Shown: positions 1 through 38,253 of the stretch, one piece after another
How positions within the stretch are numbered: position 1 is the first letter of the stretch
Layout: each line of letters starts with the position of its first letter
Notes under the pieces: generated by a model
The model's database searches: none
Seen by the model: only the letters and a program-made list of their open reading frames with translations
Told to the model about the DNA's origin: nothing
Translations under genes and position numbers: made by a program
From: Acidimicrobium ferrooxidans
GTDB lineage: Bacteria; Actinomycetota; Geothermincolia; Fen-727; Anoxymicrobiaceae
Length of the DNA: 64,000 nt
Assembly: GCA_020723485.1 (NCBI GenBank)
Contig: DYIU01000003.1
Span: forward strand, 394,347-458,346
Direction: 5' to 3'

Positions 1-1201
1 CCTCCGCGAGGAACCAGGTGGGGGCGGTGATATAGTTGTCCCAGACCTCGGCTCCCGTTGCATCGTTCCCGGTGCCGCAGTACAGGTCTCCCAGCCAGAA
101 AAGGAGCGCGAAAGCCCCCAGGTTGTTGCTGGTGCCAAAGCCGGGGGCGTTTACCTGCTGCCAGTCCGTGAAGGGCGGGCCGCCCGTACAGGCGCTCTGC
201 CAGATCTCCGCTCCCGTGGCGCTGTTCCTGGTACCGGCATACAGGTACGAGCCGTCTGATACCAGCGACGTGACGCCCACGTTCCCGGCATCGCCGAACC
301 CGTTGGGGGCGACGTTGGCCCAATCGGTGTACGGAGGCCCTCCGGCGCCGGAGCTCCTCCATATACTACTTGGCGCCCCGACTCCGCCGTTGTCGACGCC
401 GGCGTAAAGGTACGACCCCTTCACCTCCAGCGTCCGTGCGCTGTAACGGTTGACCGAACCGAAACCCGGGTTGTTCACGCGGACCCAGTCCGTGTACGGG
501 GGCCCGCCCCCGGCGCCCGTGCTCCAGATCTGGCAGCCTGTCGCGGTGTTCTCGACTCCCACGTGGAGCCGCGAGTTGAAGACCGTCATCGACCACGCGT
601 CCTGGTTACCGGTACTTCCGAAGCCGGAGGTGTTCACGCGGACCCAGTCGGCGAAGGGCGGGCCGCCCGCGGCCGCGGTCCTCCAGATCTGCGTGCCGTT
701 CGCCGGGTTATAGGTCCCCGCGTAGAGGTACTGACCGTACGCGGCGAGGCAGTCTATCGAATCGTTGTTCACGTTGCCGAAGCCGTTCGCGTTCACCTGC
801 TGCCAGTCGGTGTAGGGCGGGCCGCCGCCCGCCGCGGTCCTCCACAGCTCGGCGCCGTTCGAGTTCTCGGTTCCGGCGTAGAGGTATCCGCCGTGGACCG
901 TCATCGAGAAGACGGCCACGTTTGCGGCGTCGCCGAAACCAGCGGTGTTCACCCGGACCCAGTTACTGGCGTCATACATCCAGACCTGGCAGCCGGCACC
1001 GTTGCCGACGCCGGCGTACAGGTAGCCCTCGTACTCGACCATAGTCCAGACCCGGGCGTTGGCGGCCGCGCCGAAACCGTCCGTGTTATTCTGCGACCAG
1101 GCGGTCAGGTCTGCCTGCGCGGGGCCCGCCAGCAGGGTCAGTGGGACTATGAGGGCCGCGATGAGGATAACGGAGATTACCGAAGCACGTGTAGACCGCA
1201 T
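1..1201 (-). CDS. Secreted repeat protein, 5'-partial in window (C-terminus lies beyond coordinate 1). Signal peptide, then about 7 tandem ~50-aa repeats of pattern W-x-x-V-N-x-x-GFG ... Y-L-Y-A-G-T ... Q-I/V-W, looking like a beta-propeller or Kelch-like fold.
   Basis: The reverse-strand reading frame is open from 1201 to the window edge. ATG at 1201-1199 gives MRSTRASVISVILIAALIVPLTLLAGPAQA, a signal peptide. The periodic repeats are visible in the translation. Confidence 0.6.
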   Translation of the reverse strand, partial: MRSTRASVISVILIAALIVPLTLLAGPAQADLTAWSQNNTDGFGAAANARVWTMVEYEGYLYAGVGNGAGCQVWMYDASNWVRVNTAGFGDAANVAVFSMTVHGGYLYAGTENSNGAELWRTAAGGGPPYTDWQQVNANGFGNVNNDSIDCLAAYGQYLYAGTYNPANGTQIWRTAAAGGPPFADWVRVNTSGFGSTGNQDAWSMTVFNSRLHVGVENTATGCQIWSTGAGGGPPYTDWVRVNNPGFGSVNRYSARTLEVKGSYLYAGVDNGGVGAPSSIWRSSGAGGPPYTDWANVAPNGFGDAGNVGVTSLVSDGSYLYAGTRNSATGAEIWQSACTGGPPFTDWQQVNAPGFGTSNNLGAFALLFWLGDLYCGTGNDATGAEVWDNYITAPTWFLAE

Positions 1202-1394
1202 GACGCCACCTCCCGGTAGGGTTATCCTTGATTATGTTCCCTTACGCGTGAATAGGCAATCCGCGCGCGCGTTCGCCGGGGGGCATCGGGCTTCAGCTTC
1301 AGCAGCTTCGGCCAGACCGGTCGGCGGGAAGGTGCGCGGGAAGGACTGGATAATATAACGTTAGAAGGAGAAGCATCTCACGGGGGGGTTTGGC

Positions 1395-1769
1395 ATGGAG
1401 GCAAGCAGCAGCGGTTTCCCGGCCTGGTTGATAGTTGTCCTGGCTCTCGTCGGTCTTGCCATCTACATCTATACGGCGTACTGCCTGATGAAGATAGCCG
1501 GGAGGCTGGGGGTGGAGAACGGGTGGTTCGCCTTCATACCGTTCCTCAACTACTGGCTCATCACAAAGATGGGGGGAAGGGACTCCACCTGGTTCATCTT
1601 CATGCTTCTCGGGTCGTTCTGCTGCGGCATCGTCACGATGGTCATGTTCATAATCATCATGATGGACGTCGCCGAAGCGCTGGGATTCCAGGACTGGTGG
1701 GGAATCCTCCTAATCATCCCGCTCTTGAACCTCTACGTCTTCTACAAGCTGGCGTTCACCGAGCCGTGA
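1395..1769 (+). CDS. Small integral membrane protein (3-4 predicted TM helices), function unknown
   Basis: 124-aa ORF made of hydrophobic segments. GAAGGAG sits upstream of the ATG. Confidence 0.5.
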   Translation: MEASSSGFPAWLIVVLALVGLAIYIYTAYCLMKIAGRLGVENGWFAFIPFLNYWLITKMGGRDSTWFIFMLLGSFCCGIVTMVMFIIIMMDVAEALGFQDWWGILLIIPLLNLYVFYKLAFTEP

Positions 1770-1853
1770 TTCATGACGGGTCTCCCGCTCCATTTCTTTT
1801 TTCCGCGGCACCCGAACCGAATGTCGACCGGCGGGCGGGGGCTTCCCGTCCTC

Positions 1854-2015
1854 CCCGCAGGTTTGAATCACAATAGTGTTCAGAAATTAACAATATAATG
1901 AAGTTTGCTTCATTATTAACAGCCCGAGCCGGAAATTCGCAGCAAGGCTGTGGGTCCTGATTAATATTGATATTATTCAAGGCTATTGTTTATTACTGTG
2001 ATTCAAACCTGCGGG
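1854..2015. repeat. AT-rich island of about 124 bp, flanked by a perfect 19-bp inverted repeat (CCGCAGGTTTGAATCACA / TGTGATTCAAACCTGCGG). Could be a MITE-like element or a small RNA locus.
   Basis: Inverted-repeat arms at 1854-1872 and 1997-2015. The interior is about 70% AT in an otherwise 63% GC context and has internal hairpins (AATGAAG...CTTCATT). It lies between convergent gene ends. Confidence 0.5.
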
Positions 2016-2045
2016 ACGCTCTAGATCGAGACGCTGAATCGACCC

Positions 2046-2257
2046 GGGTCGGGCACCCTCTCGGAGGACACCCACGTTGTGCCCGGCGCCAGCAGAGCAG
2101 ATAGATTCCCGGAACCGCGGTTCTACCGAGTCTGATGATCAGGGTCGGCACCCTCACATGGATTCCCGGAACGCCAAACCGGCGGAGTCGTAGCCGCGGT
2201 ACTCGAGCCGCCTCAGTCCGTCGTACAGTACCGCGGTTCTATCGAGTCTGATGATCA
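2046..2257. repeat. Two tandem imperfect direct repeats of about 96 and 116 bp. Each begins GGGTCGG(G)CACCCTC, contains GATTCCCGGAAC and ends ACCGCGGTTCTA(C/T)CGAGTCTGATGATCA.
   Basis: The 28-bp terminal units at 2114-2141 and 2230-2257 differ at 1 of 28 positions. The second unit abuts the stop codon of the 2258-3292 gene. Confidence 0.5.
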
Positions 2258-3292
2258 TCAGTAAGGAGCCCAGTACCAGCCTTTTCCCTCGCAGTTGGGG
2301 CAGGTCTTGGTCGAGCCGTCAGGGAAGATGAAGTAACCCAGGCCGCCGCACTCGGGACACTCTATCCTCTGGCCCCCTGATTCGGACTCCTCCTGCTGCT
2401 GCTGGGCGGCAGCCTGCTGCTCGGCCGCCGCGGCTGCCTGCTGGGCCGCGGCAGTCTCCGACTGGATCCTGGCCTGCTCAGCCGCAACCGCCTCGTTGAC
2501 CTTCTGTTCCGTCTTCTTGGTCCAGTCCCAACCGACGTCTAGGACGCCGAAGCCCTCGTCGGTCTTCTCGACCTGGTCGTTGTCCGCGACGAACTCCCCG
2601 TTGGCCTTTTCGACCGACTTCGCCAGATTCTGCAGCTCCGTGAGTATCTTGTTGAGGTTGTTGACCACGTCTGGATTTATGAGCTGGTTGCCCGCGAGGG
2701 CGTTGTTCAGTGCGGTTATGTACTCGACCATCTTCTTTACGTATTCCTTGTATACCTCGAGGGCAACGGCCAACTGCTCCGCCTTGATATCGCGCGTATT
2801 GGCGGGTTTTGCATCCGGGTTCTTGCGTAAGCCGTCGGTGCCCCCTTTCTCCTCCTGTATCTCCTGGAGGGCGGCCAGCTTCGTCTGGCTCTTCTTGAGG
2901 TCCTCCTGCGCCTGGTTGAGTGAGGCGGTGTCCATGGTTATCCGGGCGACCTCATCACTGTCATCCTCGAGGAGCGCTTCGTAGTCTTCCCAGACCTCCA
3001 TTGTCGCGGCGTCGACCTTGTCGTTCGCGCCGGCCTTGAATATGAAGATGCCTCCGAGCACAAGTCCGCCCAGCACCGCGACCCCGATTATCACGACGAG
3101 GGCTATTCCCGCCGGTGAAGAGAAGAACCCGCCCGAGTCTTTCTTCCTGTCCGCATCCTGTGGCGGCTGTGCCTGTGCCGCGGGAGCGACCGTCATCGGC
3201 GCGGTCGCGCCCGGGTCGCCGAACCGGTAGCCGCACTCGGGGCAGAACTTGCTGCCGTCGTTCACTGAACTGCCGCAGTTTCTACAGAACAT
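2258..3292 (-). CDS. Membrane-anchored coiled-coil protein bracketed by zinc ribbons: N-terminal CxxC-x12-CxxC, one TM helix, a long Ala/Gln/Glu-rich coiled coil, and a C-terminal CPECGG...CPNCEG ribbon
   Basis: 344-aa ORF. The motifs are visible in the translation. No confident family assignment. Confidence 0.55.
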   Translation of the reverse strand: MFCRNCGSSVNDGSKFCPECGYRFGDPGATAPMTVAPAAQAQPPQDADRKKDSGGFFSSPAGIALVVIIGVAVLGGLVLGGIFIFKAGANDKVDAATMEVWEDYEALLEDDSDEVARITMDTASLNQAQEDLKKSQTKLAALQEIQEEKGGTDGLRKNPDAKPANTRDIKAEQLAVALEVYKEYVKKMVEYITALNNALAGNQLINPDVVNNLNKILTELQNLAKSVEKANGEFVADNDQVEKTDEGFGVLDVGWDWTKKTEQKVNEAVAAEQARIQSETAAAQQAAAAAEQQAAAQQQQEESESGGQRIECPECGGLGYFIFPDGSTKTCPNCEGKGWYWAPY

Positions 3293-3368
3293 CGATCATC
3301 ACCCCTCCTCTTGAACCGCGCCCATTCTATATCAGGGAATCGGCGCCCCGACAGCCGCGCGCGGCTAT

Positions 3369-5183
3369 TTGACCTTCGGTCAGGTGATTTCCTATGCTTG
3401 GACTGAAGCGGGAACCGGGTTCATGCCGATACAGAAGATGATGATGATGGGCATACTTCCTCGCTCCTGGTCAATATTCGCTCCGAGGTTCGACAGGAAC
3501 GGTTCCAGGCCGGCGGACCTCGTGGTCGCCGGTGCCCGGATAATCACGTGCCACGAATCCGCGCCGCGGGCGAGCGCGCTGGCGGTCAAGGACGGCCTCA
3601 TCGCTTACGTCGGGGACGATGCCGGCGTCCGCGATTTCGTGGGCCTCTCTACACGGGTGATAAACGGGAAGGGCCGCACGCTCACCCCGGGGTTCATCGA
3701 CAACCACTGCCACGTCCTCTGGATAGGTGGGCTCACCTCGCTGATGACGACGGACCTCTTCACCTGCGAGACGGTGGACGAGATGAGGGAAGTCGTCCAA
3801 AGGCAGGCCGCCCGGTTCCCTGACAGCGCGATAGTCATGGCGCAGGGCTGGAAGCAGCACTGCATCCCGGAAGGCGTATCGCAGCTGGAGCTGCTCGACT
3901 CCTGGGTCCCGGACCGCCCGGCGGCGCTGATGTCGTACATGGCGACCGGCTGGGTCAACTCGAGGATGCTCGAACTCATGACCGAGCGGAACCCGGCCGC
4001 GATGGAGCTGCTGGTCCCGGAGAGGGACGGGGCGGGCGCCTGCAACGGCCTGCTCAGGCACTTCCACGCCTTCAACCCGCTGGACTTCGTCTCGCTCGAT
4101 GAGCTGGGGCCCGGGGTCAAGGAGCTCATGTTCGAGGCCATGGAGCGGGTACTGGGCGAGGCGCTCTCCGTCGGCGTGACCACGATGGACGACGTCCAGG
4201 TCTACAAGCCCTATTTCCCGGTCATCCTGGAGTTCAGGGACCGGGGCGGACTAGACAACGTCAGGGTCAGGTGCGGGTATTACCTGCCCAACTCGGTGCT
4301 CGACGACGAGGCGGCGCTCGAGAGGGACCTTTCATGGTGGAAGGAGCTGGGGAAAGCCGAGTCGGACGAACACCTCACCCTCGGCAGGTCGGTGAAGCTC
4401 TACATCGACGGGGTGGCCTCCAACCACGCCGCGCTCAACTTCGAGCCTTACGCGGACATGCCGGACAGCCTGGGGGACGCCGTCTGGACCCAGGAGGGGT
4501 TCGACAGGGTCATCGAGATAATCGACTCCATGGACCTCCAGGCGTGCACGCACTGCTGCGGGGACGCGGGCATCAACAGGGTCATCAACTCCTACGAGCG
4601 CGCTTACAGGCTACACGGCAAGCGGGACATCCGGCACCGGGCGGACCACTGCAGCCGGCCCGCGGTCGATGACTACGAGAGGCTCGCGAAGGTGGGCGTG
4701 TACGCGGCGATGCAGCCCGCGCACTTCTTCGGGGACCAGACCGTTGAAGCCGCGCTGGGACACAACAGGCTCCAGCACTTCCAGCCGTGGAGGTCTCTCG
4801 AGAAGGCGGGTGTGAACATCTCGTTCGGGAGCGACTGGTGCGCGGGCCCGATCAACCCGGTGTACGGGCTCCTCATCGCGGCCAACAGGATGAACTACCA
4901 TTTCTCCACCAGCTGGGGACCCGCCGAGAAGATAGGCATCGAAGGCGCGATAAGGCACTGGACCATCGACTCGGCGAGGGCCCTGCACATGGAGGACGAC
5001 ATCGGCTCGATCGAGGTCGGGAAGAGGGCGGACTTCGTCCTCTTCAACACGAGCCCGCTGAAGCTTTCGTCACACTGGTTCCTCTTCACGCACGCTCTCG
5101 AGCTGGGGGCGATGGACGGTTACGTGGACCTGACGGTGGTCGGGGGAGAGATAGCCTACCGGAAAGAGGGCGCTCAGGTTTGA
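3369..5183 (+). CDS. Amidohydrolase-family metal-dependent hydrolase (amidohydrolase_3-like)
   Basis: FIDNHCHVLW (the HxH metal-ligand motif), HCCGDAG, and a C-terminal FNTSP...GG segment. The start is uncertain: there are ATGs at 3369, 3423 and 3441-3449. Confidence 0.8.
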   Translation: MTFGQVISYAWTEAGTGFMPIQKMMMMGILPRSWSIFAPRFDRNGSRPADLVVAGARIITCHESAPRASALAVKDGLIAYVGDDAGVRDFVGLSTRVINGKGRTLTPGFIDNHCHVLWIGGLTSLMTTDLFTCETVDEMREVVQRQAARFPDSAIVMAQGWKQHCIPEGVSQLELLDSWVPDRPAALMSYMATGWVNSRMLELMTERNPAAMELLVPERDGAGACNGLLRHFHAFNPLDFVSLDELGPGVKELMFEAMERVLGEALSVGVTTMDDVQVYKPYFPVILEFRDRGGLDNVRVRCGYYLPNSVLDDEAALERDLSWWKELGKAESDEHLTLGRSVKLYIDGVASNHAALNFEPYADMPDSLGDAVWTQEGFDRVIEIIDSMDLQACTHCCGDAGINRVINSYERAYRLHGKRDIRHRADHCSRPAVDDYERLAKVGVYAAMQPAHFFGDQTVEAALGHNRLQHFQPWRSLEKAGVNISFGSDWCAGPINPVYGLLIAANRMNYHFSTSWGPAEKIGIEGAIRHWTIDSARALHMEDDIGSIEVGKRADFVLFNTSPLKLSSHWFLFTHALELGAMDGYVDLTVVGGEIAYRKEGAQV

Positions 5184-6031
5184 GGGGTGGACGCGCCGCC
5201 GGGTGGCTCTGGAGCACCAGCGAGCAGCTGGCGGAGAGGCACCGGTGGTACGCGGTCCTCTTAGAGGCTCTGGTCGATTTCCGGCGCAATAAGCTCCGGT
5301 ACCACACCTACTTCTTCACCGTCAACGCCTTCGTGGGGGTGCTCGCGCTGTTTCTCGCCATATCGTCGCTCATGGGCTTCCTGGGGGACTCCGAGTTCAA
5401 GCGGCAGGTGGTGGACGGGATGACGAGCGTGATGCCGGTGCTGCGCGGGAGCAGCTCCGAGGTCCATAACATCTTCGAGACCTTCAAGGGAGCCGCGGGC
5501 ATTGTAAGCTTTCTCTTCCTCATATGGGCGGCCACCAGGATATTCAGCGCGCTCGAGACCGGGTTCAACATCATCTGGGATTCCGAAAAGAGGCGCTACG
5601 CGCACTCTCTGCTGGTAGGCCTCCTGATGACCGCCGTGGTGGGGGCCCTGTTCCTGCTCACTTCACTGATACAGTTCGGGTTCAACAGGCTGCTCGGAGA
5701 GCTCCTCGAGACGAGGAACGTGGGCTACTACCTCGGTGTGGCGGTCGCAAAGCCCATTATCGGCCTGCTCATAAACTTCCTGCTCTTCCTGTTCGTTTAC
5801 CGCGTGGTCACCGGGGTAAGCCCGCCGTTCACCAGGTGCCTGCCCGCGGCCGCGCTGGCGGCGGTCCTCTTCCTCGGCTCCCAGTATGTCCTCAACCTCT
5901 ACTTCGATTACATCTACAAGGTGCCAGCGATATACGGGAGCCTGGCAAGCGGGATAATACTGATACTCTGGATGCAGGCGACGGGCATGATAACCTTCTA
6001 CGGCGCCGAGGTCATCCACGCGCTCGAATAG
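5180..6031 (+). CDS. yihY: YihY/BrkB-family inner membrane protein
   Basis: Six TM segments with the family-typical N-terminal region (RYHTYFFTVNAFVGVLALFLAISS) and a C-terminal GAEVIHALE. The long upstream ORF extension overlaps the amidohydrolase gene and was discarded. The start is probably TTG at 5180, which overlaps the upstream stop codon. Start is approximate. Confidence 0.7.
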   Translation: MRGGRAAGWLWSTSEQLAERHRWYAVLLEALVDFRRNKLRYHTYFFTVNAFVGVLALFLAISSLMGFLGDSEFKRQVVDGMTSVMPVLRGSSSEVHNIFETFKGAAGIVSFLFLIWAATRIFSALETGFNIIWDSEKRRYAHSLLVGLLMTAVVGALFLLTSLIQFGFNRLLGELLETRNVGYYLGVAVAKPIIGLLINFLLFLFVYRVVTGVSPPFTRCLPAAALAAVLFLGSQYVLNLYFDYIYKVPAIYGSLASGIILILWMQATGMITFYGAEVIHALE

Positions 6032-6111
6032 GGTCAGACCATTTTCGTTGCGTCAGCAACATGTTCAACATGTTAAATAGAGTGCCTGACGCAACGAAAA
6101 TGGTCTGACCC
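6031..6111. terminator. Perfect 26-bp-stem palindrome (GGGTCAGACCATTTTCGTTGCGTCAG ... CTGACGCAACGAAAATGGTCTGACCC) with a 29-nt loop. It exactly fills the gap between two convergent stop codons. Likely a bidirectional terminator and/or a palindromic repeat element.
   Basis: Arms at 6031-6056 and 6086-6111. The loop contains the direct repeat CAACATGTT twice. The arms resemble the repeat family at 11230, 33209, 51278 and 59880. Confidence 0.55.
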
Positions 6112-9100
6112 TATTCGCCGATGGTGGAGGTGCCGGCCCCGCGGCTGTTCCAGTACATCGCCTGTTCGGCCACTATCCCCTTGCCGGGGGTCTTGCAGGT
6201 GACCTCGACGGCGGCGCGGCCTGCCGGTACCCTATCCGACATGTCGTAACTCCTGCGGGAATGCGCGGGCACCACCTCGGAGAAGACGACCTCTTCCCCC
6301 TCTCCGGCCAGCGGCATGTATGAGACCTCTATCTCCACATCCTGGTTGTTGGGGTTCTGCACGATGGTCCATGTCTCGTGGCCGTTGTATGTCTCTCCAT
6401 CCGGCAGGTAGAACGTCCCCCTGGTGGAACCGACCCCGATGGAGCAGTGGCCCGCTTCTCCGTTCGGCGTGTCCCCGCCCCACAGCATGACCCTCTCGGC
6501 GACGATCGGCGCGGAGCCGTGGACTTCCATAGACAGGTCGGTGCTCGCGACCGGCTGTATATCGTTCACCCTGACGGTCCTCCTGGAGCAGGCAGGTATC
6601 TGTAACTCCGACCGCCACCTGCCGCCTTCAGATGTCATGTAGGTCACGGTGACATCCGTGTCTGTGGGCTGCGGGTTCTGCACTACCAGGTACGTCGTGA
6701 ATCCCCAGGCCGTGGTCCCTTCCGCCAGGTAGAAGTCCCTGGAGGGAGTGTCCGTGCCGATGGATTCATGCCCTTCCCTGCGGTTGTTTCCGTACATCGT
6801 CCTCTCGGGGACCACCGGCACGTCGCTTTCCACTTTGATGCTCGCGTCCGCCGCGCCTGTGTCACCGGCAACGTCGATGGAAGCCCGCGACATGGCCGGC
6901 ACCTCGTGACGGACCGTTCTCGGGGCACCGTCCTCGAACATATAGGTCACGTCGCAGGTCGCCGGGGCATCGTTGGGATTGAGAATCGTCAACCAGCACT
7001 CGAAGCCCCATGCGGAGGAGCCCTCTGCGAGGTACCAGGCCTTCCCCGGGGTATCGACTCCCACGGACGAATGGCCTTCCGCGGAAGGCGCACCCTCTCC
7101 AGTCCAGATCATCCTGCGTTCAACGGCAAGAGGCCTGCCCTCCGGGCTCTCCACGACGGTCGAGAAATCCATAGCCCCTATGTCGTCCCGGGGGTTGATG
7201 ACAGTCTGGCTCGAGGCCGGCAACTCGAGGTCGGGACGGGTCACCGGACCTGCCGGAGTAATATAGGTCAGCTTCGCCGCGGTCGCAGTTTCGTTGGGAT
7301 TCATTATCGTGAGGTATGTATCGAATCCCCAGGCGGACGACCCCTCGGCAAGGTACCCGGCAGGGTTTCGCACCTCCAGGTTTGCCGAGAACTCACTGGT
7401 GTTTCCCTCCCCGCTCGGGTCGCCTGCAGGGCTCGCGGCCGTGGCGGATATCAGGTCGCCCGCCGACATTCCGGATACCGTCGTGCTGAATTCACCGGAA
7501 CTGGCGGCCGTCACGGTCGCCAGGTAATCGCGACCCTGACCGTGACCGGAAGGGTCCGGTGAGGCCCCGGTGAGATAGAGCTCGACGGCGGCGCCTGGTG
7601 GAGCCGTGCCGCGCACCAGCGCATCCCCGGAGTCGTCTACCACGGCCTGTCCTCCCGAGAACACCGGGAAGTTGTAGCCGCGCTGGGGCTTCTCCGGGTT
7701 GTTGTTGTTCCCATCGTTGGGGGTCACACCGTCACCGAGGATATCGATGCCCAGACCGCCGTTGCAATAGATGGAATTCCCGCTTATCCGGTCGCTGTAA
7801 GAGTCCGGCGTCCAGACGACGACCCCGGCGGCCTGGTTGTCCGCTATCCGGTTGGACGTCACCTGGTTGCCTGTAGAATCAGAGAACGGGGCGAACGATA
7901 CGCCGCTGCCGAGGTTTCCCTCAATCGTGTTGTCGGAGACCACGCAGTCCGTGCCGCCCAGGCTGACGCCCGAGTCGTAGACCTTCGTGCCGAAGTCGAG
8001 CGCGGGCGGCGAGTACCCGGCGGCGACGGGCAGCGAGCCCACCGGGAGGTAGTCGCTCCCGGGCGATGCGGCCTGGAAGGCGAGCTCAAATCCTCCATCC
8101 TGAATCTCCGAGTTGTCGTAGCCGAAGCCGGGCAGCACCATGTCCATGAAGCCCAGGAGCACCTCTTTGCTGGGGAACACCCCGGCGTCGGCGTACCAGG
8201 TCATGTAGAGGTCCCCTGAGCCGTTCCACGCGTGCACGAGCCCCACGTTGAAGCTCCTGACCCCGTCCGCGAACTGGACGAGGGACCCGTCCGAGGGCAC
8301 CGCTGCGAACTCGCCGGCCGAGGGGTCCCCGATGAAGAAGCACCCCGGGAAGCCCATGATGGTCTCGTCGTAGTCGTTGCCGCCGAGCGAACGAGGCGAG
8401 TTGGAGGCCTCGTAGCAGGGCAGGCCGGTGCCGTTGCCGGTGATGGTATTCAGGCTGACGGTGCACTGGGAGACGCCGCTGAGGATGAGGCCCTGGTGGC
8501 GGTTGTACTTGATGTGGTTGCGCCCCTCTTCCGAGCCGCCCACTACCGTATGGCCCGCTTCGTTCTCAATCCTTATGCCGGTGTTCGCGTTGCCGAGCCC
8601 GGAAGCGCCGTCGCGGTTGGTACCGATGTAGTTGCCGAGCACCTCGTTGTACTCAGTCCCGGCATCCGACAGGTACACCCCCGAGTCGCCGTTGGCCGCG
8701 ATCACGTTCCCCGTGCCCGCGCCTTCTCCACCGACGGTGTTGGGATTCGAGGCCGAACCGGCGCCCGCGGTGATGCTCACGCCGCTGGAATCGTTGGGCA
8801 GGGCGGCCGTCGCTGTCGCATCGAGCCCGATCACGTTGCCGGCGACCACGTTGCCGTCGGCGTTGGGCCCGGTGATGGTCACACCGTTGGGATTGCCGCT
8901 GATCAGGTTTCCCTCTCCGGGACCGCCTCCGCCTATTGTGTTGTTCGAACTCGACGAGGCGCCTCCATCGATCCAGACACCATCGCTCGCGTTGCCGAGC
9001 GCGGCCGTGCCAGTCTTGTCGGTGCCTATGAAATTACCGGCTATGTGATTGCCGTCCGCCCGGATGCACACGCCTTCGTGGGCCGCTGCGCTTATGAGGT

Positions 9101-9791
9101 TGCCGTCCTGCGGCCCGCTGCCTCCCACCGTGTTTCCGGATGCGGAGCTCGATATGTTGATATTGTCGCTCGCCCCCGGAGCAGGAGCACCCAGGCCGTC
9201 CGCGTAAGTGCCGATGTAGTTCCCCGCCACCACGTTCCCTGTCGCGCCAGGTCCCGAGATGCCTATCCCGTTGCTCGTGAACCCGTAGATCGCGAGTCCC
9301 TGGACCGTATTTCCTCCGGAGCCGATGTTGATGCCGGTCCCGACGGAGCCCTGCCCGTTTACGGCCACCAGGATGACCCTCGAAGCTATCGGCCCTGGCG
9401 ACGCTCCATCCTGTGTGTAACCGTCAATAGTGGTGTTTCCACCATGCAGCACGGGAAGGGGTGAAAGAAGGAGTATCTCGTAGGGGCCGGCCGGGATGTC
9501 GAACTCGATGACCTTGGTGTCCTCGGGGAGCTCCGCGCTGGCATCGATCATCGCCTGCCGCAACGACCCGACCCCGGAGTCGTTGACCGTGACTACGGTG
9601 AAGGTATGCGTGTCCGCCGCTCCCGCCGGTCCGGCCACCATGAACACCGTGGCCGCGACCATTGCAATGAGCACGAGTGCGAACGCCGCGGGCACGCGGA
9701 CTATTCCGGGATACCGCTCGAATGGGACCTTCGTCTCCGGCCTCCTCCACTCAGACTTATCGGGATGCAGGTCACTGGACAGGAAGACCAC
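6111..9791 (-). CDS. Large secreted or membrane-anchored surface protein. It has an N-terminal signal anchor, a right-handed parallel beta-helix region (PbH1/NosD-like; many GNxIxGNxIG repeats), a Ser/Thr-rich linker, and 4 C-terminal ~110-aa repeats with the pattern YLAEGxxAWGF-T-L-I-NP.
   Basis: 1226-aa ORF. The periodic NxxGNxxxGN beta-helix motifs and the four repeats are visible in the translation. The start codon is GTG at 9791 or a downstream Met. Confidence 0.7.
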   Translation of the reverse strand: MVFLSSDLHPDKSEWRRPETKVPFERYPGIVRVPAAFALVLIAMVAATVFMVAGPAGAADTHTFTVVTVNDSGVGSLRQAMIDASAELPEDTKVIEFDIPAGPYEILLLSPLPVLHGGNTTIDGYTQDGASPGPIASRVILVAVNGQGSVGTGINIGSGGNTVQGLAIYGFTSNGIGISGPGATGNVVAGNYIGTYADGLGAPAPGASDNINISSSASGNTVGGSGPQDGNLISAAAHEGVCIRADGNHIAGNFIGTDKTGTAALGNASDGVWIDGGASSSSNNTIGGGGPGEGNLISGNPNGVTITGPNADGNVVAGNVIGLDATATAALPNDSSGVSITAGAGSASNPNTVGGEGAGTGNVIAANGDSGVYLSDAGTEYNEVLGNYIGTNRDGASGLGNANTGIRIENEAGHTVVGGSEEGRNHIKYNRHQGLILSGVSQCTVSLNTITGNGTGLPCYEASNSPRSLGGNDYDETIMGFPGCFFIGDPSAGEFAAVPSDGSLVQFADGVRSFNVGLVHAWNGSGDLYMTWYADAGVFPSKEVLLGFMDMVLPGFGYDNSEIQDGGFELAFQAASPGSDYLPVGSLPVAAGYSPPALDFGTKVYDSGVSLGGTDCVVSDNTIEGNLGSGVSFAPFSDSTGNQVTSNRIADNQAAGVVVWTPDSYSDRISGNSIYCNGGLGIDILGDGVTPNDGNNNNPEKPQRGYNFPVFSGGQAVVDDSGDALVRGTAPPGAAVELYLTGASPDPSGHGQGRDYLATVTAASSGEFSTTVSGMSAGDLISATAASPAGDPSGEGNTSEFSANLEVRNPAGYLAEGSSAWGFDTYLTIMNPNETATAAKLTYITPAGPVTRPDLELPASSQTVINPRDDIGAMDFSTVVESPEGRPLAVERRMIWTGEGAPSAEGHSSVGVDTPGKAWYLAEGSSAWGFECWLTILNPNDAPATCDVTYMFEDGAPRTVRHEVPAMSRASIDVAGDTGAADASIKVESDVPVVPERTMYGNNRREGHESIGTDTPSRDFYLAEGTTAWGFTTYLVVQNPQPTDTDVTVTYMTSEGGRWRSELQIPACSRRTVRVNDIQPVASTDLSMEVHGSAPIVAERVMLWGGDTPNGEAGHCSIGVGSTRGTFYLPDGETYNGHETWTIVQNPNNQDVEIEVSYMPLAGEGEEVVFSEVVPAHSRRSYDMSDRVPAGRAAVEVTCKTPGKGIVAEQAMYWNSRGAGTSTIGE

Positions 9792-9827
9792 GTTTGATGG
9801 GGTATTCGGTAATAATTGCCAATAACA

Positions 9828-10583
9828 TTAACTGTGGGAGTCAGACCGTTTTTCCGCGACGAGAATCAGCCGCTCGCTCTCGTACTGCGAGTAGGGGGTG
9901 AAGTCCTTCTCCCCGTAGAACGTGAACCTGGCGATCCCCGCCTGCCGGACCGAGAACTCCAGGTCCGCAGCGGTCAGGTTAAGCAGGTCGAACCTGAAGT
10001 GCCGCATCGATGGCTCGCCGCCCGCCGCGTCGATGAAGAAGAACCTGTGGGTGGTCTTTGTTTCCCCGAAGTCGCGCACGAGCATGAGAAAGCACTCCGG
10101 CTCCGGCTCGACCACCTCTATCTCGATGTTCTCGGCCAGCTGCCTGTCGACGTTAGTGCCGCTGACCAGGAGCACTCCTCCCGGCTCGAGAACCTCGAAC
10201 ATCCCCTTCAGCGATTCGGTGACAGCCTGGCCGTCCGGCTCCAGCGAGAGGGAGTTACCCATGCAGACTACCGCGTCGTACTTACCCGGCACGACCCCGG
10301 GCAGGTCGCGCCACGTGGAGTTGTAGAGGTCGACCTCGAGTCCCGAGCCCGACAGCTTCTCGCGGGCGACCCCCAGCATGTGCTCCGATGCGTCCGAGCC
10401 GATGACAGCGAAACCCTCGCGCGCGAGCACCTCGGTGTGGACCCCCGTCCCGCAGGCGCAGTCGAGGACCGTTTCCGCGCCGTAGCGTTCTAGGATGCTC
10501 ACCAGCATGTCCCGGTCGGCTTCCAGGTCTCTCAGGAACATCCTGTCATAGACCCGGGCGATATCCTCGAAACGGTTCTCCAT
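9828..10583 (-). CDS. Class I SAM-dependent methyltransferase
   Basis: Motif I VLDCACGTGVHT and motif post-I VIGSDASEHM. Start taken at the internal Met (MENRFEDIARVYD). Confidence 0.75.
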   Translation of the reverse strand: MENRFEDIARVYDRMFLRDLEADRDMLVSILERYGAETVLDCACGTGVHTEVLAREGFAVIGSDASEHMLGVAREKLSGSGLEVDLYNSTWRDLPGVVPGKYDAVVCMGNSLSLEPDGQAVTESLKGMFEVLEPGGVLLVSGTNVDRQLAENIEIEVVEPEPECFLMLVRDFGETKTTHRFFFIDAAGGEPSMRHFRFDLLNLTAADLEFSVRQAGIARFTFYGEKDFTPYSQYESERLILVAEKRSDSHS

Positions 10584-10644
10584 TCCCACCGCCCGCTGCC
10601 GGGGCCCAACACCCCGGCTCAAGCCTTCCGAGGTGGAGCCTTTC

Positions 10645-11061
10645 CTACTCGACGACCTTGTCGTACTGGGTGCCCTCCTGCGGGTTGGTGACAGCTGCGA
10701 CTTTGCCCATGGATATACCGACGTACCAGGTCTCCTCGGCGCCGCCGTCGTCGAAGGTCAGCACCACCACACTGCGGTCATCCTCGGCGTCCTCGACTTC
10801 GTAGGTGCCCTTCCTGGACGAGCCCCATGCGTCGCCCTCGAACGTCCCGTCCTTCGTGAAGACGATCGAGCCGGGCCGACCCATGTTGTCCTTGTACGTG
10901 CCGACGATACCGGTCTCCACGTCCTCGTCGAGGGAGACGACCTCGGTCTCATGCTCGCCCTGGGTTTCGTCTTCCGTTGTCTTGCCGCCGCCGCACCCCA
11001 CAACGAGCAGCAGCCCGAGGACGAGGACCCCCAGGCAAAGGACTGCTACATACCTCTTCAT
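10645..11061 (-). CDS. Small lipoprotein (lipobox LVVGC), function unknown
   Basis: Signal peptide followed by a Cys. AAGGGGG Shine-Dalgarno site. Confidence 0.55.
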   Translation of the reverse strand: MKRYVAVLCLGVLVLGLLLVVGCGGGKTTEDETQGEHETEVVSLDEDVETGIVGTYKDNMGRPGSIVFTKDGTFEGDAWGSSRKGTYEVEDAEDDRSVVVLTFDDGGAEETWYVGISMGKVAAVTNPQEGTQYDKVVE

Positions 11062-11229
11062 CGTACGGTACCCCCTTGTTCCGGACCCCCACTCTCTGGA
11101 GGACGTTGTAGAGGCCGCTGCCGGTCTCCACGGCGCCCGCCAGAAATCCTAGCACATCGAGGCGGCCAGGGGCCTGGCCGCCGTCCGGCGGCCGCCCGCT
11201 CCTGAACCATCTATACTATTGTGAGAACT

Positions 11230-11259
11230 GCAAAATCGGGGTCAGGTCACTTTGTTGCA
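11230..11259. repeat. Copy A of the quasi-palindromic repeat GCAAAATCGGGGTCAGGTCA(C/T)TTTGTTGCA. It sits in the 5' leader and ends 20 nt before the ATG of the amino-acid-binding-protein gene.
   Basis: This is 29/30 identical to the copy at 59880-59909 and to the reverse complement of 51278-51306. Confidence 0.6.
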
Positions 11260-11278
11260 TTTTTCAGAGGAGCGCCGC

Positions 11279-12049
11279 ATGAAAAGGGCAGTATTGATGA
11301 GGTCGAGTGCAGTAATGGCCGTCTTGCTCGCGCTTGCCGCGCTGCCTGCCCTCGTGGGCTGCGGCGGCGGGCCCGCGACCGTTCAGGATGGAAGACTCCT
11401 GCTGATGGGCAACGAGAACATAGCCTTCCTGGAGATCGCCAATGGAGAGCCCGGCGGGTTCTCAGCCGAGCTCGTGACGGAGATGGCCGGACGCATGGGG
11501 CTCGAGCTCGAGGTGACCCTGGAGCCGTTCGCCGCGCTCTTCGCCAGTCTGGAAGCCGGGGAGTGCGACATCGCCATGTCGGCGATCACCATCACGCCCG
11601 AGAGGATGGAGCAGGTCGACTTCTCCGACCCTTATTTCGATTCGGGCCAGGCCATCCTGGTGCCGGAGGACTCAGCCGTCTCCGGGGAAGCGGACCTCGC
11701 CGGGAAGCGGGTGGGCGTCCTCGAGGGCTCCACGAACCAGGAGACAGCCGAGAGCATACCCGGTATCGCCGAGATAGTGCGCTTCCGGGAGAAGCCCCCG
11801 ATGTTCGAGGCCCTCGTTGCAGGCGGGCTCGACGCGGTCATCAGCGACACGCCGTTCGCTCAGTTCAACGCGAAGGCCACCGGGAAGACAAAGATCGCAA
11901 AGGTGCTGACCCGCAGTGAGAAGTACGGGATAGCGGTGAAGAAGGGCAACTCCGAGCTGCTGCGGGAACTGAACGACGAGCTGAGGAAGCTCAAAGAGGA
12001 CGGGACGTACGACCGGCTGTACGAGAAGTACTTCGGCGACAGGGTCTAG
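11279..12049 (+). CDS. Amino-acid ABC transporter substrate-binding lipoprotein (SBP_bac_3 family)
   Basis: Lipobox ALVGCGGG. Family-typical DIAMSAITIT, DFSDPYF, GKRVGVLEGST. GAGGAG Shine-Dalgarno site 7 nt upstream of the ATG at 11279. Confidence 0.8.
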   Translation: MKRAVLMRSSAVMAVLLALAALPALVGCGGGPATVQDGRLLLMGNENIAFLEIANGEPGGFSAELVTEMAGRMGLELEVTLEPFAALFASLEAGECDIAMSAITITPERMEQVDFSDPYFDSGQAILVPEDSAVSGEADLAGKRVGVLEGSTNQETAESIPGIAEIVRFREKPPMFEALVAGGLDAVISDTPFAQFNAKATGKTKIAKVLTRSEKYGIAVKKGNSELLRELNDELRKLKEDGTYDRLYEKYFGDRV

Positions 12050-12098
12050 GGAGCGCGACCCGGCCGACGCTTTAGAATCGAAGCGGTTCGAAGCTCTC

Positions 12099-13628
12099 TC
12101 AGTGCACCGGGCCGGTGGCAAGGGAGCCCGCATCCCCCGACAGGAGCTCGGCACTGATGGTGGTGTGCTGCCCGATAACGCTGACGGCGGGCTCTTCCAT
12201 CTCCGAGCACGTGCCGGTGGGGGCCTGCAGCGCGAGCGGCATGGCCACCGCCCCGTCGGCGGGCGGGGTGAACGCCGCGTCCACGTCCAACTGCACGTTG
12301 CAGCGCAGCGGGTCCTGGTTGCCGAAGTAGAACTCCTTGAACTCCCTGCGCTCCTCCTCGGTTATCCGGTCGGTCCAGTCGGATATGTCCGCCGCCGTGG
12401 GGTCCACCGGGACCCAGCCGTAGTTGGGCAGGTAGAACTCGGCCCAGAAATGGCCCGCGAAGTTGCCGGTGAACAGCTGCCAGCCGCCGGTGGTCCGGGC
12501 GGGAATCCCGAGCGAGCGGCAGAGGGCGCTGAAGTACATGCTCTGTGCCCCGCAGTCGCCGCGCTTCATCCTGTGCACGTAGACTGACTCGCGCTCCCCT
12601 CTCGGCCAGGCCGCCATGTGCGGCATGTAACTGTACCTGACCTCTTTCAGGATGTAGTCGTAGAGCTTCTTCGCTGCGAGGTACGGGTTCTTCTCGCGGC
12701 CGACGACCTTCTTAGCCGTGGACCGGATGTCGTCGGATATGTAGATGTTTCCGTATGACCTGGTGTACTCCCTGTAGAGCGCGCTCGACCTGTCGTACTC
12801 GCCGACGTTTTCCGGCTCCACCTTGAAGTTCTCCTGGTAGTGCGTGAACTGGAACTTGACCTCAATGCTCAGGTCGCCCGCGAGCTCCTCGAGCGGTACC
12901 TCGAAGTAGGCGTCCGACAGCGCCCCGTCGAGGGAAGCCGGCTGCTTGAGCCAGGTATCGGGAGTAACCGACACCACCGAGACCGTGTCCTGCGGCCCCA
13001 GCAGCACCGGGAGCGGGAACCAGAGCTTCAGGACACCCTTATCGGGCAGTTCCGGGCGGGGTATGTCGACCGACTCGGTGCCCAGCCACGTCAGGGGATT
13101 GGAGTACGGCTGCCACTCAGGGGCCTGGTACTCGATGTACGGCTTGAAACTCTTTATAAGGCCGGCCACCGTCTCGGACTTCGCGGTGTTCTGGTACGCG
13201 ATGTCGAAGTGGCGTGTCGCTATGTTCTCGGCCGCCTGGTCGAAGTAGTGGACCTTGCCGTCCCAGGTCATGTGCTCGAGCTCGCCGCTCTTTATCCAGC
13301 CCTCGCGCTCTTCGCGCGGCACCTGGGGATACAGCTCTTCGAGCTTCTTCCTGGTGTCTGAGACCAGGTCCGGGTAAGTGGCCATGACGAACATCGCGTC
13401 CTGCGCAGCGTTGCGGCATTCGGTCGCCCTGGCTGCCTCACCCTCCTTCACGAAGAGCGAACGGGCGCGCTCGTACTCCTTCATTGCCTTCGTGAGCTCG
13501 GCCTTCTCCTCGAGCTCCCGGGCCCTTTCGAGGGCCTGCTGCGCGGGCGACCCGCCGCACCCCCCCAGGACCGGCACCACAAGCGCCAGGATGACTAATA
13601 CGATCAGCGTGACGCGTACTCTGGACAT
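12099..13628 (-). CDS. Transglutaminase-like cysteine protease-fold lipoprotein
   Basis: Core GDCGAQSMYFSALCRSLGIPAR (a transglutaminase-like Cys). Lipobox LGGCGGS. AAGGAG Shine-Dalgarno site. Start taken at M28 of the ORF. Confidence 0.7.
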   Translation of the reverse strand: MSRVRVTLIVLVILALVVPVLGGCGGSPAQQALERARELEEKAELTKAMKEYERARSLFVKEGEAARATECRNAAQDAMFVMATYPDLVSDTRKKLEELYPQVPREEREGWIKSGELEHMTWDGKVHYFDQAAENIATRHFDIAYQNTAKSETVAGLIKSFKPYIEYQAPEWQPYSNPLTWLGTESVDIPRPELPDKGVLKLWFPLPVLLGPQDTVSVVSVTPDTWLKQPASLDGALSDAYFEVPLEELAGDLSIEVKFQFTHYQENFKVEPENVGEYDRSSALYREYTRSYGNIYISDDIRSTAKKVVGREKNPYLAAKKLYDYILKEVRYSYMPHMAAWPRGERESVYVHRMKRGDCGAQSMYFSALCRSLGIPARTTGGWQLFTGNFAGHFWAEFYLPNYGWVPVDPTAADISDWTDRITEEERREFKEFYFGNQDPLRCNVQLDVDAAFTPPADGAVAMPLALQAPTGTCSEMEEPAVSVIGQHTTISAELLSGDAGSLATGPVH

Positions 13629-13763
13629 CCTCACTCCTTCGCATCTCTCTTCGAGTGTTGTCGGCTTGCACCGCGCGCTTTCTGAAGCGAGGAATGCATA
13701 ATGGGGCATAATCCCAGGATCTTGATTCCGTGAACGACCCGCCTGCGCCCCGACGGCGATAGC

Positions 13764-15596
13764 CTATCGCGCCGCCCGCAGGAACTCCCTGCAGAGGTTC
13801 ACACCTTCACGGGGATCCAGGGTCCAGGCGTCGGCCCCGACGAAGTCGCGTACGCCCTCGGTGGTCGGCCCGCCTCCTATGATAACGAACCTGCCGCCCC
13901 TGATCCCCCGCTCGCCGAGCAGCTCGACCACCTGTCTCATGGACTCGAAGGTGGGGGTGATAAGCGCCGACATTGCGACTACCGCGGCGCCGGTCTCGGC
14001 GACCTTGTCCACGATGGCTTCCGGCGGCACGTCGACCCCCAGGTCGTGGACGTTGAAACCGCTCGCCCTGAAGAGAGTCGCGGTTATGTTCTTGCCGATG
14101 TCGTGGACGTCACCCTTGGGCGTGGCGATGACCACGACCCCGCCTCCAGCCTCTCCCCCGCCCTCCATGACGAGCGGCTCGAGCCTCTCGGCCACCTCCT
14201 TGAACGCGTCGGCGGTGAGGACCAGCTCGGCCAGGAAATACTCGCCGCTGCTGTACAGCTCGCCCACCTTCTCCATCCCGGAGCGGCAGTCGTCGAGTAT
14301 CTCGAGTGGATCTCTTCCGGCGGAGATATCTCTCTGGACCATCGACATCATCTCGTCCAGTCGGAGCTCGCAAAGCGCCAGGCCGATCTCCCCTTCGAGC
14401 GCCACCTCCACGGCGTCCCGCCCGGCGGTCTCGACGCTCCGAGCGCTGGACCCGGCGGTCTTCCTGCCGCGGTAGGTCCTGCCGGTCTCGACCATTGCCC
14501 TCAGGTTCTCGGGCCTTACGTCGATCGGGCACTCGCACCCGGTGGTGAGCATGAAGCCGCCCCCGTCACCGACCTCATCGATCAGCTTCCTGCAGTAGGC
14601 CTCGACCTCATCCGGCTTCCCGAGCGAAAGCAGCGCGGCCGGCACGTCCCCGCTTATGCACATGTGCCCTTTCAGTATCTCCTTGGCGCGGAAGATGTCG
14701 GTCATGCCGTCCAGGTCGCATACGCATTTGCCCCTCGGGAGCTTCTTCAGGTAAGGCATGTTGAGCGTCCAGTCGGTGTCGAAGTGCAGCCAGGGCGTGA
14801 TGCCCTCCGAGACAAAGGCGTCAACGTAAGCCTGCAGCCACGGCCACTCGAAGCGCTCGAACGTCTCGAGGCGGTAGTAGGCCCCCGAGCCCCTCTCCAA
14901 CACCACGAAAGCCACCATCTTGCCGTTGTTCCTGCAGACCTGCACCGCGTTCGAGATGAGGTCGTCGCACGAAGCGCGCATGGCAGCCTCGACCTTGTCT
15001 GGCACCTCGAAGAGGTCGCGGGTGAACTCGGGGAGAGTCCGGCACAGGGAGAACGCCATCAGCACCGAGTCTACGGCCACCCCAAGGAAGATAGGCATCC
15101 CCTGCTCCTCGCATATCTTCGTGTCCTCGTCGTAGAACTGGTTGCTCAGGGTCTGCATCAACCTGAACTTCTCGGCGGACTTGCCGCTCATCTCCTCGTA
15201 GCGCTCGTCCCAGTATGCGTTCCACCCCAGCGCGGCTATCCTGTCGTAGTCCTCCCTCCCGAAGAGCACCCTCTCGTCTATCTGGTACAGGTCGTCCTCC
15301 CCGAGCTGCCGCCCGGGAATGAGGTTTCGCACCGGCGCCCCGCAGTGCCTGCCGGGTAGCATCGGGTAGTAGTAGTTGGGCTTGCTGCCGTAGTCGTATC
15401 CGAACTCCTTGAAGCACCAGAGGAGCGCCTCGCGGGCCGCGTCGTGGTCGCGCCACGCCTCCCCCTGGGTGATTCCGTACAGCCTCGGCCCCGCCGTGAC
15501 TAGTATCGGGAAAACCGGGTGCCGGTCTACCGGCTCGATGGCCAGGGCGGCCTCGATCCTCTCCTGGGAGGTCATGGTCTCTGTTACTCCGGCCAT
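13764..15596 (-). CDS. Fused corrinoid-dependent methyltransferase. The N-terminal domain is URO-D/MtaA-CmuA-like and the C-terminal domain is a B12-binding corrinoid domain (helical cap plus DxHxxG Rossmann).
   Basis: About 400 aa of URO-D-like domain, then LALCELRLDEMM...GEYFLAELVL (B12-binding cap) and VVIATPKGDVHDIGKNI (the DxHxxG cobalamin-binding motif). GGAAGGAG Shine-Dalgarno site. Confidence 0.7.
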   Translation of the reverse strand: MAGVTETMTSQERIEAALAIEPVDRHPVFPILVTAGPRLYGITQGEAWRDHDAAREALLWCFKEFGYDYGSKPNYYYPMLPGRHCGAPVRNLIPGRQLGEDDLYQIDERVLFGREDYDRIAALGWNAYWDERYEEMSGKSAEKFRLMQTLSNQFYDEDTKICEEQGMPIFLGVAVDSVLMAFSLCRTLPEFTRDLFEVPDKVEAAMRASCDDLISNAVQVCRNNGKMVAFVVLERGSGAYYRLETFERFEWPWLQAYVDAFVSEGITPWLHFDTDWTLNMPYLKKLPRGKCVCDLDGMTDIFRAKEILKGHMCISGDVPAALLSLGKPDEVEAYCRKLIDEVGDGGGFMLTTGCECPIDVRPENLRAMVETGRTYRGRKTAGSSARSVETAGRDAVEVALEGEIGLALCELRLDEMMSMVQRDISAGRDPLEILDDCRSGMEKVGELYSSGEYFLAELVLTADAFKEVAERLEPLVMEGGGEAGGGVVVIATPKGDVHDIGKNITATLFRASGFNVHDLGVDVPPEAIVDKVAETGAAVVAMSALITPTFESMRQVVELLGERGIRGGRFVIIGGGPTTEGVRDFVGADAWTLDPREGVNLCREFLRAAR

Positions 15597-15721
15597 GGGA
15601 GCTCCTTCCCGTGGACTTCAGGCCCAGTCAATTATATCGATGAGGGCATTATTGACATACATGTGGTGTGATGCATATTGTCGGTAGGCTCGAACGAGGA
15701 CTCTGAAGGGGGTTAGCGGCT

Positions 15722-19489: not shown

Positions 19490-19579
19490 TCCTGCCTGTG
19501 ATGACTTCCGCTATAAGGACTCGCGATTCACCTTTCGCGGTATTATTCGGCATCTCGCGCGCCATACCGTACCGGGAGG

Positions 19580-19897: not shown

Positions 19898-20026
19898 TTC
19901 GAGAACCTCCTGGATCGAGCTGCCTTAATGAACTCGCTGGGCCTGATTCCCTTATAATGCCATTATTCTATCTCGAACAGGAGCCGGCCGCGCAGGGGGC
20001 CCATAAGACGCAGGGAGGGCGAATCG

Positions 20027-38214: not shown

Positions 38215-38253
38215 GAGGCCACCTCCTTGTCTACCCCTACCATGGGTATAGGT

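Follow-up and report, generated by a model that had tools for sequence, protein, structure and literature searches.

The locus described here raises the question of why two convergent genes should both end inside one long, perfect palindrome, and whether this palindrome is a terminator, a binding site for a protein or a mobile element. It lies in a stretch of 64,000 nucleotides of Acidimicrobium ferrooxidans (NCBI GenBank assembly GCA_020723485.1, contig DYIU01000003.1, positions 394,347 to 458,346 of the forward strand), which is called the window below. [quoted passage not shown]

The focal inverted repeat covers 93 bp (6025–6117). Its two arms are complementary at 32 of 32 positions and stand 29 nucleotides apart, and the element and its flanking genes are arranged as follows:

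5180–6031, + strand: gene of a YihY/BrkB-family membrane protein of 283 amino acids (PF03631, 2.7e-36), the C-terminus of which, ...GAEVIHALE followed by the stop, lies inside the element.
6025–6056, + strand: left arm, one repeat unit, CGAATAGGGTCAGACCATTTTCGTTGCGTCAG, composed of CGAATA, GGGTCAGACC and ATTTTCGTTGCGTCAG, in which the YihY/BrkB gene has its last Glu codon and its TAG stop.
6057–6085, no strand: non-palindromic loop or spacer of 29 nt, CAACATGTTCAACATGTTAAATAGAGTGC.
6086–6117, - strand: right arm, fully reverse-complementary to the left one, in which the DUF5719 gene has its final Glu codon and its TAG stop.
6111–9791, - strand: gene of a large secreted or surface protein of the DUF5719 family with a C-terminal DUF5719 module, the C-terminus of which, ...RGAGTSTIGE followed by the stop, lies inside the element.

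The preliminary description had given the stem as 26 perfect base pairs exactly bridging the two stop codons. The complementarity stood, but the arms it gave (6031–6056 and 6086–6111) are only the inner part of a stem running six nucleotides further on each side (CGAATA and TATTCG). Because of these extra bases, both stop codons (TAG at 6029–6031 for the + strand gene, CTA at 6111–6113 for the - strand gene) and the final GAA codon of both convergent open reading frames (ORFs) sit within the arms, and the element overlaps both ORFs instead of bridging their stops. A 29-nt loop with a doubled motif and the lack of a U tract had also been noted, and both observations hold. Positions 6057–6074 of the loop are a tandem duplication of CAACATGTT, each copy including the 8-nt palindrome AACATGTT, an octamer with three occurrences in the window where 0.13 are expected, and no U tract follows the stem on either strand, the downstream sequence being CCGATGGTGG on the + strand and AGCGCGTGGA on the - strand. 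The 25-nt core of the arm is present at these two places alone in the window (0 expected). The predicted RNA fold of the element has a free energy of -69.2 kcal/mol on the + strand and -72 kcal/mol on the - strand (z = -12.5), and none of 200 shuffled sequences was equally stable.

The outer boundary of the arms is supported by a separate, independent Logan assembly of run SRR13164373 (L046). It includes an identical YihY gene (P0001), and its sequence stops exactly at window position 6054, which is the unitig break expected from a de Bruijn graph with k = 31 if the repeated segment begins at 6025. Judged from this break, an artefact of a single assembly appears unlikely.

The ends of both flanking genes are derived from the element. 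The closest homologs of both proteins were named Actinobacteria, Candidatus Geothermincolia or Candidatus Anoxymicrobium/Anoxymicrobiaceae, which points to an uncultured actinobacterium as the source. In the alignment of YihY proteins, all 13 homologs run 12–29 residues past the conserved ...GAEVvyvLE, the point at which the window protein stops. The DUF5719 module has a near-invariant C-terminus, ...RGAGTDTIGGYSD, with exactly four residues of the GYSD type after TIG in 95 of 120 homologs. The focal protein ends in TIGE without the GYSD tail, and a paralog in the window at 62119 reaches further. Since homologs of both proteins keep C-terminal residues that are absent here, the alignments show the focal copy to be the derived state, both native C-terminal tails having been replaced by the C-GAA-TAG of the element (last codon and stop).

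Related loci were examined in stretches of about 20 kb around homologs from other metagenome-assembled genomes. In one relative (L047, GCA_018831265) the YihY gene and a DUF5719 gene with a hairpin of its own are separated by four genes and 2.6 kb, and the region 3' of YihY was different in every relative examined. On the basis of these differences in gene order, a rearrangement or deletion at the focal site is likely. The L047 hairpin beside the DUF5719 gene is only suggestive of a positional ortholog of the focal element, because the DUF5719 proteins are a large paralogous family with identities of 52–61%.

The DUF5719 family is very large in Geothermincolia/Anoxymicrobiaceae, and its near-invariant end is possibly a sorting or anchoring signal. 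Surface-protein paralogs with this module are encoded in the window at 6111–9791, 23739–26441 and 62119–63978 (all on the - strand) and at 2–1201, and they include internal repeats of about 330 nt, for example at 23796–25120.

A repeat search and an nhmmer profile identified altogether eight related units at six loci in the 64 kb, all of them intergenic, and no further diverged copies were found in the window by nhmmer with the unit profile. The consensus of the unit is roughly GCAACAWnG-GGGTCAGGTCAYTTTGTTGC. The focal arm is homologous to it, and the five other intergenic places in the window are the following:

11229–11264, + strand: single unit TGCAAAATCGGGGTCAGGTCACTTTGTTGCATTTTT, flanked by a -10-like TATACT and the ribosome-binding site of a solute-binding-protein gene.
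21407–21494, no strand: second doublet with arms 21407–21436 and 21465–21494 (30 nt, 87% complementary), a 28-nt spacer and convergent ORFs on either side.
33208–33237, - strand: divergent single unit TTGCAACAAGGGGTCAGGTCCCATTTTGCC, with the stop of a copA-like ATPase gene on one side and a cysteine-synthase-like gene on the other.
51273–51309, - strand: single unit, located 36 nt past the upstream stop and separating two co-directional genes.
59877–59908, + strand: single unit, identical at 32 of 32 positions to the copy at 51278–51309 and adjoining the TTG start codon of trpE (- strand).

In the second doublet, the TGA stop of the ORF at 20027–21427 lies within the left arm, and the stop of a carboxylesterase gene (21501–21503) is 7 nt from the right arm. 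The aligned units consist of an A/T-rich lead (GCAAAAT, GCAACA or CGAATA), the sequence (C)GGGGTCA[GC], a few bases and ATTTTG(T)TGC. Their head, of the GGGGTCAG type, is invariant and their tail, ATTTTGTTGC, is rich in A/T, and the unit flanks GCAACA/TGTTGC and CGAATA/ATTTTCG are complementary around a GGGGTCAGGTC core. About 23 of 28 aligned columns are the same in the focal arm and the single units, in agreement with an earlier remark that the arms resemble a 30-bp repeat family. Homologous elements elsewhere, which the preliminary description had proposed looking for, are thus present at five other loci of the window and, as doublets, in relatives. Copies outside the window were also sought with the pattern GGGTCAGNNCATTTTN{0,1}GTTGC in 185,579 GTDB genomes and in JGI metagenome contigs. 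These scans, in collections that do not reach the source lineage, returned 45 and 55 loci, each a lone match whose flanks were unrelated, which is about the number expected by chance.

Four doublets were detected in the stretches from related genomes:

L047 (GCA_018831265), 13473–13547: arms of 21 nt and a loop of 33 nt, 5 nt from the stop of the DUF5719 gene.
L108 (GCA_936417815), 20950–21029: arms complementary at 25 of 25 positions and a loop of 30 nt, 2 nt past the ruvB stop.
L175 (GCA_936417815), 8011–8088: arms complementary at 23 of 23 positions and a loop of 32 nt, 10 nt past a stop.
L175 (GCA_936417815), 13106–13194: arms complementary at 24 of 24 positions and a loop of 41 nt, flanked by divergent genes.

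In these relatives the GGGGTCAG head is outermost, as in the focal element, with arms of 21–25 nt and loops of 30–41 nt. The whole family of doublets has its heads outward, arms of 21–32 nt and spacers of about 28–41 nt, and in five of the six doublets a stop codon is at a distance of 0–10 nt. The left arm and flank of the first L175 doublet (8000–8035) are identical to the window single unit at 11229–11264 at 32 of 36 positions (89%), while the only protein found in common between the window and that stretch of GCA_936417815 is 70% identical. No such element was present in the related loci L106, L107, L109, L110 and L176.

The stems of the six doublets are Watson-Crick paired at 115 of 120 positions. 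The six head pairs never vary, the variable pairs were changed on both sides in every case (14/14), and there are no G-U pairs on the + strand. As selection on the RNA fold alone would tolerate wobble pairs, their near absence suggests that the complementarity of the arms was made or is kept at the DNA level, either by copying arm from arm or through a DNA hairpin intermediate.

The orthologous junction of ruvB and queH differs between three related assemblies. In L178 the two genes are separated by a 24-nt spacer without any hairpin (RuvB 88% identical). In L108 an 80-nt GGGGTCAGG doublet (20950–21029) stands in place of the first two queH codons, and the annotated queH now opens with an ATG in the loop of the hairpin and continues across the right arm (MVDAGEFTIQDLTP-ILVHTCCAP). 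In L177 (RuvB 95% identical) there is a different GC-rich palindrome beginning on the ruvB stop. Because of these differences, the sister hairpins are insertions or replacements that are gained and lost, and not conserved gene-specific signals.

The palindrome of L177 belongs to a second, different repeat, GTAGCGCCGGCCTCCGGCCGGC, which has a GTAG head and a GC-rich mini-hairpin and resembles a classical REP. It was found on or just past stops in GCA_936417815 and a close relative (L174 5644–5665 and 12292–12313, L177 1652–1747), in L177 as a palindromic doublet at the ruvB-queH junction, and is absent from the window. Also L047 includes other intergenic palindromes, at 346–425, 462–593 and 8142–8176. 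One palindrome of this relative, TGAAAGAAAACCTCAGACCATTTCTTTCA, is present in three copies and has TCAGACCATTT in common with the focal arm, and a perfect hairpin with a 15-bp stem, AGTGTAGCAAAAGGG-cttga-CCCTTTTGCTACACT, lies upstream of its amidohydrolase-YihY operon.

The assignment of the focal element to a REPIN/MITE-like class is based on its inverted pair of units, the non-conserved spacer, the intergenic site, the presence and absence among relatives and the lack of an encoded protein. A mobile palindromic element inserted into the intergenic gap had been one of the options considered beforehand. The mobile element is favoured by the units found elsewhere, the truncation of both neighbours and the gain and loss in sister genomes, but not the insertion into a gap, as the native 3' ends of both genes were replaced. 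By definition, a REPIN is a pair of inverted REPs that, together with their spacer, give a near-perfect hairpin of about 89 bp, and the singlets have been read as decaying remnants (PMC3337134). The family shares with REPINs and with the bacterial interspersed mosaic elements (BIMEs) of Pseudomonas and Enterobacteria, which are mobilised by RAYTs (tyrosine transposases associated with REPs), the short inverted units, the non-conserved spacer and the near-perfect hairpin of about 90 bp. As with REPINs, the unit also occurs as dispersed extragenic singlets, target-site duplications are missing and the doublets are better conserved than the singlets. The arrangement of tail complement, head and tail in the singlets resembles the 'long palindromic REP singlets' of SBW25 (PMC3337134). 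REP-RAYT systems are further marked by units dispersed tens to hundreds of times per genome outside genes, each a short imperfect palindrome with GTAG or GTGG at its 5' end, and by one single-copy RAYT (Y1/HUH transposase) gene, which REPs usually flank.

The element may have reached this site through transposition in trans, or through a repeat-mediated rearrangement combined with a deletion. The four genes between YihY and DUF5719 in L047 may mark such a deletion. Its perfect arms could result from a recent origin or from template-switch homogenisation of a quasi-palindrome.

Several results weigh against the REPIN/MITE-like interpretation. No transposase of any type (RAYT/Y1, IS630 or Tn3) was found among the approximately 44 window genes scanned nor among the Pfam labels of the loci of the relatives. 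The focal element shows no target-site duplication, its flanks GAATA/TATTC being inverted and not direct, and the TA beside the 26-nt core was not reproduced consistently at the other five doublets. With no close relative in the protein collection (best YihY homolog 67% identical), an empty-site allele of the focal locus was not found. Folds of the single units were no more stable than those of shuffled controls (z from +0.4 to -1.2), and the copy number of the unit is that counted in the 64-kb window. The doublets of one genome have arms that diverge strongly past the head, unlike a REPIN population with a master sequence, and the head in all 16 arms is GGGGTCAG ((G)GGGTCAG) and not the GTAG of classical REPs; the small GTAG-headed hairpin occurs only in the relatives L174 and L177 and not in the window. 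Furthermore, the functions of the hairpin as RNA are all inferred. Also the host differs, as it belongs to a deep-branching actinobacterial lineage unlike the hosts of REPINs, and the REP-associated RAYT groups 2 and 3 have been analysed mainly in Enterobacteriaceae and Pseudomonas (PMC5581495). Because of the non-GTAG head, the weak self-folding of the units, the lack of any RAYT seen and a copy number taken from the window, the element is not firmly placed within the REP-RAYT family proper.

In Proteobacteria, Neisseria and streptococci, small palindromic repeats such as REPs, REPINs and MITEs are familiar, and no description of them was found for uncultured actinobacteria of the Geothermincolia/Anoxymicrobiaceae. 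The focal element opens no new class of system; it is a bacterial repeat of an ordinary kind from a little-studied lineage. The family has two mildly unusual traits. The first is an invariant head with arms that vary among copies and are yet perfectly paired within each, which could point to a protein partner or to a process homogenising the palindromes. The second is the overwriting of gene termini: the focal copy remodels two genes together, both C-termini being trimmed and both stops donated, and the sister case gives queH its start codon. The ends of both flanking ORFs are thus element-derived, which should be considered in annotation.

A broader form of the same interpretation can be considered, in which the GGGGTCAG-headed perfect palindromes, with 21–32-bp arms and spacers of about 30–40 nt, form a lineage-wide system in deep-branching Actinomycetota and some phage-like contigs. 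The head would be read by a dedicated protein (a RAYT-like HUH enzyme, another nuclease or recombinase, or an RNA-processing factor), and copying at the DNA level would keep the arms perfect, so that gene ends become overwritten with new stop or start codons. This extension is speculative and on balance doubtful.

That the heads are instead a functional recognition site, bound at the DNA or RNA level by a host protein dedicated to it (whether a regulator, a nucleoid protein, a nuclease or an uptake-signal receptor), with the paired copies being functional and not selfish, is improbable. The head is invariant in the 16 arms from four genomes while the remainder of the arm varies, two single units are identical throughout their 32 nt, and units stand beside promoters or ribosome-binding sites of unrelated genes. 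Long hairpins headed by GGGGTCAGG were also found in IMG/VR contigs, which may be unrelated, at 45 loci with 11 extended arms, compared to 18 loci and one extended arm for the single scrambled control head that was tried, and such hairpins occupy five intergenic gaps of a phage-like contig (L150). Against a recognition site, orientation and distance to the neighbouring genes are inconsistent, these genes are functionally unrelated, the element is lacking from the five related loci mentioned above, and the 8-mer GGGGTCAG is just about twofold enriched in the window (8 vs 4.2).

The phage-like contig L150 (IMGVR_UViG_3300029286_003067) is 7.4 kb long, and its hairpins, of 55–60 nt with the form GGGGTCAGGTCTTGYRTTGCCAC-N9-GTGGCAAYRCAAGACCTGACCCC, occur in both orientations:

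L150, 1868–1928: hairpin.
L150, 2707–2767: hairpin.
L150, 5064–5123: hairpin.
L150, 6210–6269: hairpin.
L150, 7192–7282: hairpin.

Other IMG/VR contigs include inverted arrays of GGGGTCA/GGAGTCA heptamers.

A locally evolved bidirectional terminator, a hairpin selected in situ to halt both convergent RNA polymerases and not mobile, is likewise of low probability. The exact position at two convergent gene ends and the very stable RNA stem on both strands would fit it, as would the other doublets adjoining stop codons and the compensatory nature of every variable stem pair. Canonical hairpin-plus-T terminators were not enriched in 1–20000 (10 vs 10.6 expected), which leaves room for another signal. 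The element nevertheless does not consist of a GC-rich hairpin followed by a U-rich tract of 7–9 nt, as an intrinsic terminator does. It was not called by the terminator scan, and no canonical terminator or promoter was found within or beside it. As the U tract is absent on both sides and is required for termination by the mycobacterial RNA polymerase (PMC3993855), classical intrinsic termination by the focal stem is unlikely. Also the arm-homologous units present in 5' regions and between divergent genes, the hairpin missing from the ruvB-queH junction of one relative and the lack of G-U pairs, which points to upkeep at the DNA level rather than the RNA level, argue against a terminator, and the loss of conserved C-terminal residues from both genes is the signature of an insertion or replacement and not of a gradually evolving hairpin.

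Inverted pairs of DNA uptake sequences or uptake signal sequences in Neisseria and Haemophilus act as bidirectional Rho-independent terminators, and the focal element is similar to them in being a stable hairpin between convergent genes with a short conserved motif paired at the 3' ends. It differs from intrinsic terminators in its missing A/U tracts, its far longer 32-bp stem, its 29-nt loop and a conserved motif that makes up the outer third of the arm only. With Rfam 15, at gathering and permissive thresholds, the focal element gave sub-threshold matches to microRNA-precursor models only (28.8 bits vs 75 needed), which resemble any long hairpin.

A role of the REPIN/MITE-like element in the ends of the transcripts is another matter, and a 3'-end barrier or processing site is plausible. 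Both convergent transcripts would end in, or read into, a perfect RNA stem of 32 bp (about -70 kcal/mol). The stem would block 3'-to-5' exonucleases and be an ideal substrate for RNase III, so defining and insulating both mRNA 3' ends, and the ribosome would have to unwind it to terminate, each stop codon lying within the stem. For Correia elements, binding and cleavage of the hairpin RNAs by RNase III have been documented (PMC2649163).

It is quite improbable that the element is a classical MITE with 26-bp terminal inverted repeats (GGGTCAG...CTGACCC) and a duplicated TA target, either IS630/Tc1-like or Correia-like. Terminal inverted repeats, a hallmark of MITEs, are present in the focal and sister doublets. 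TA stands directly beside the 26-nt arms on both sides (6029–6030 and 6112–6113) and adjoins CCGG also on the right side of the 21407 doublet, and many bacterial MITEs typically have 5'-TA-3' at their termini and a transcript that forms a long stem-loop (PMC2229807). The pairing, on the other hand, extends 4 nt past the TA (CGAA/TTCG), and the family alignment places the A/T-rich 5' flank within the unit. There is no TA or direct duplication at the ends of the L047 and L108 doublets and both L175 doublets, single units occur without a partner arm, and no full-length insertion sequence with matching ends came up in the approximately 300 kb of lineage sequence inspected, in which no systematic search was made.

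The element is similar to the Correia elements of Neisseria (CREE/NEMIS) and to the MITEs RUP, ERIC and YPAL in its small size, its inverted ends of about 24–26 bp with TA and its intergenic location near gene ends. Transcripts of Correia-type elements fold to long stems that RNase III binds or cuts, the stability of neighbouring mRNAs is altered, and the elements can fuse to the ends of ORFs (PMC2649163, PMC2229807). The focal family differs from them in lacking any sequence similarity and a consistent TA duplication, in being much shorter (81–93 bp) and in its common half-elements. Neither an integration host factor (IHF) site nor an outward promoter was detected in the focal element.

A few further candidates were rejected. 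Target-site duplications, either TA or 5 bp as in Tn3, were dismissed as the flanks are inverted and differ from copy to copy; the ends of the Tn3 family likewise begin with GGGG. An integron attC site, an inverton and a protelomerase site were excluded by the lack of R and L boxes, a spacer too short to invert and the interrupted palindrome.

An assembly chimera, in which two loci with one copy of the repeat unit each were wrongly joined, is very improbable even though the contig comes from a metagenome assembly, the unit is dispersed, both genes look truncated right at the unit boundary and the Logan contig halts within the arm so that L046 does not span the junction, for the larger k-mers and the reads used by standard metagenome assemblers exceed the 32 nt of the repeat, which would normally be spanned, doublets of like geometry occur in other, independent assemblies (GCA_018831265 and GCA_936417815 as listed above), and the L046 break at 6054 is where a true inverted copy of the 31-mer would place it.

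Some other features of the window were observed beside the repeat units. The unit at 59877–59908 adjoins the TTG start of trpE, the first gene of a complete trp operon on the - strand (53265–59877) with the order trpE-G-D-C-F-B-A. No leader peptide with Trp codons was seen. Upstream of trpE (59960–60015) there is a hairpin with a 9-bp stem and, on the + strand, A8 behind it (on the - strand, T8 ahead of the hairpin), and further on, at 60508–60774 (- strand), a gene of a Phd/YefM-type antitoxin (PF02604).

A TACCCCTACCATGGGTATAGGT-like inverted pair (36256–36283 and 38232–38259, 28 nt, 89% complementary) was found. Its copies are located at the upstream ends of two adjacent units on the - strand, the copper P-type ATPase gene (33316–36300) and the pair made up of a CsoR-family repressor gene (PF02583) and the gene of a DsbD_2/HMA/cupredoxin protein (37942–38214 and 36363–37886), and they are presumably CsoR operators of a copper-resistance cluster.

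The only Rfam match in the window was a c-di-GMP-II (cyclic di-GMP) riboswitch at 16584–16667 on the + strand (61 bits, above the gathering score). Its expression platform is a canonical hairpin-plus-T (16655–16678) directly upstream of the ORF at 16684–18156, which encodes a secreted adhesin-like protein with SdrD_B/SpaA domains.

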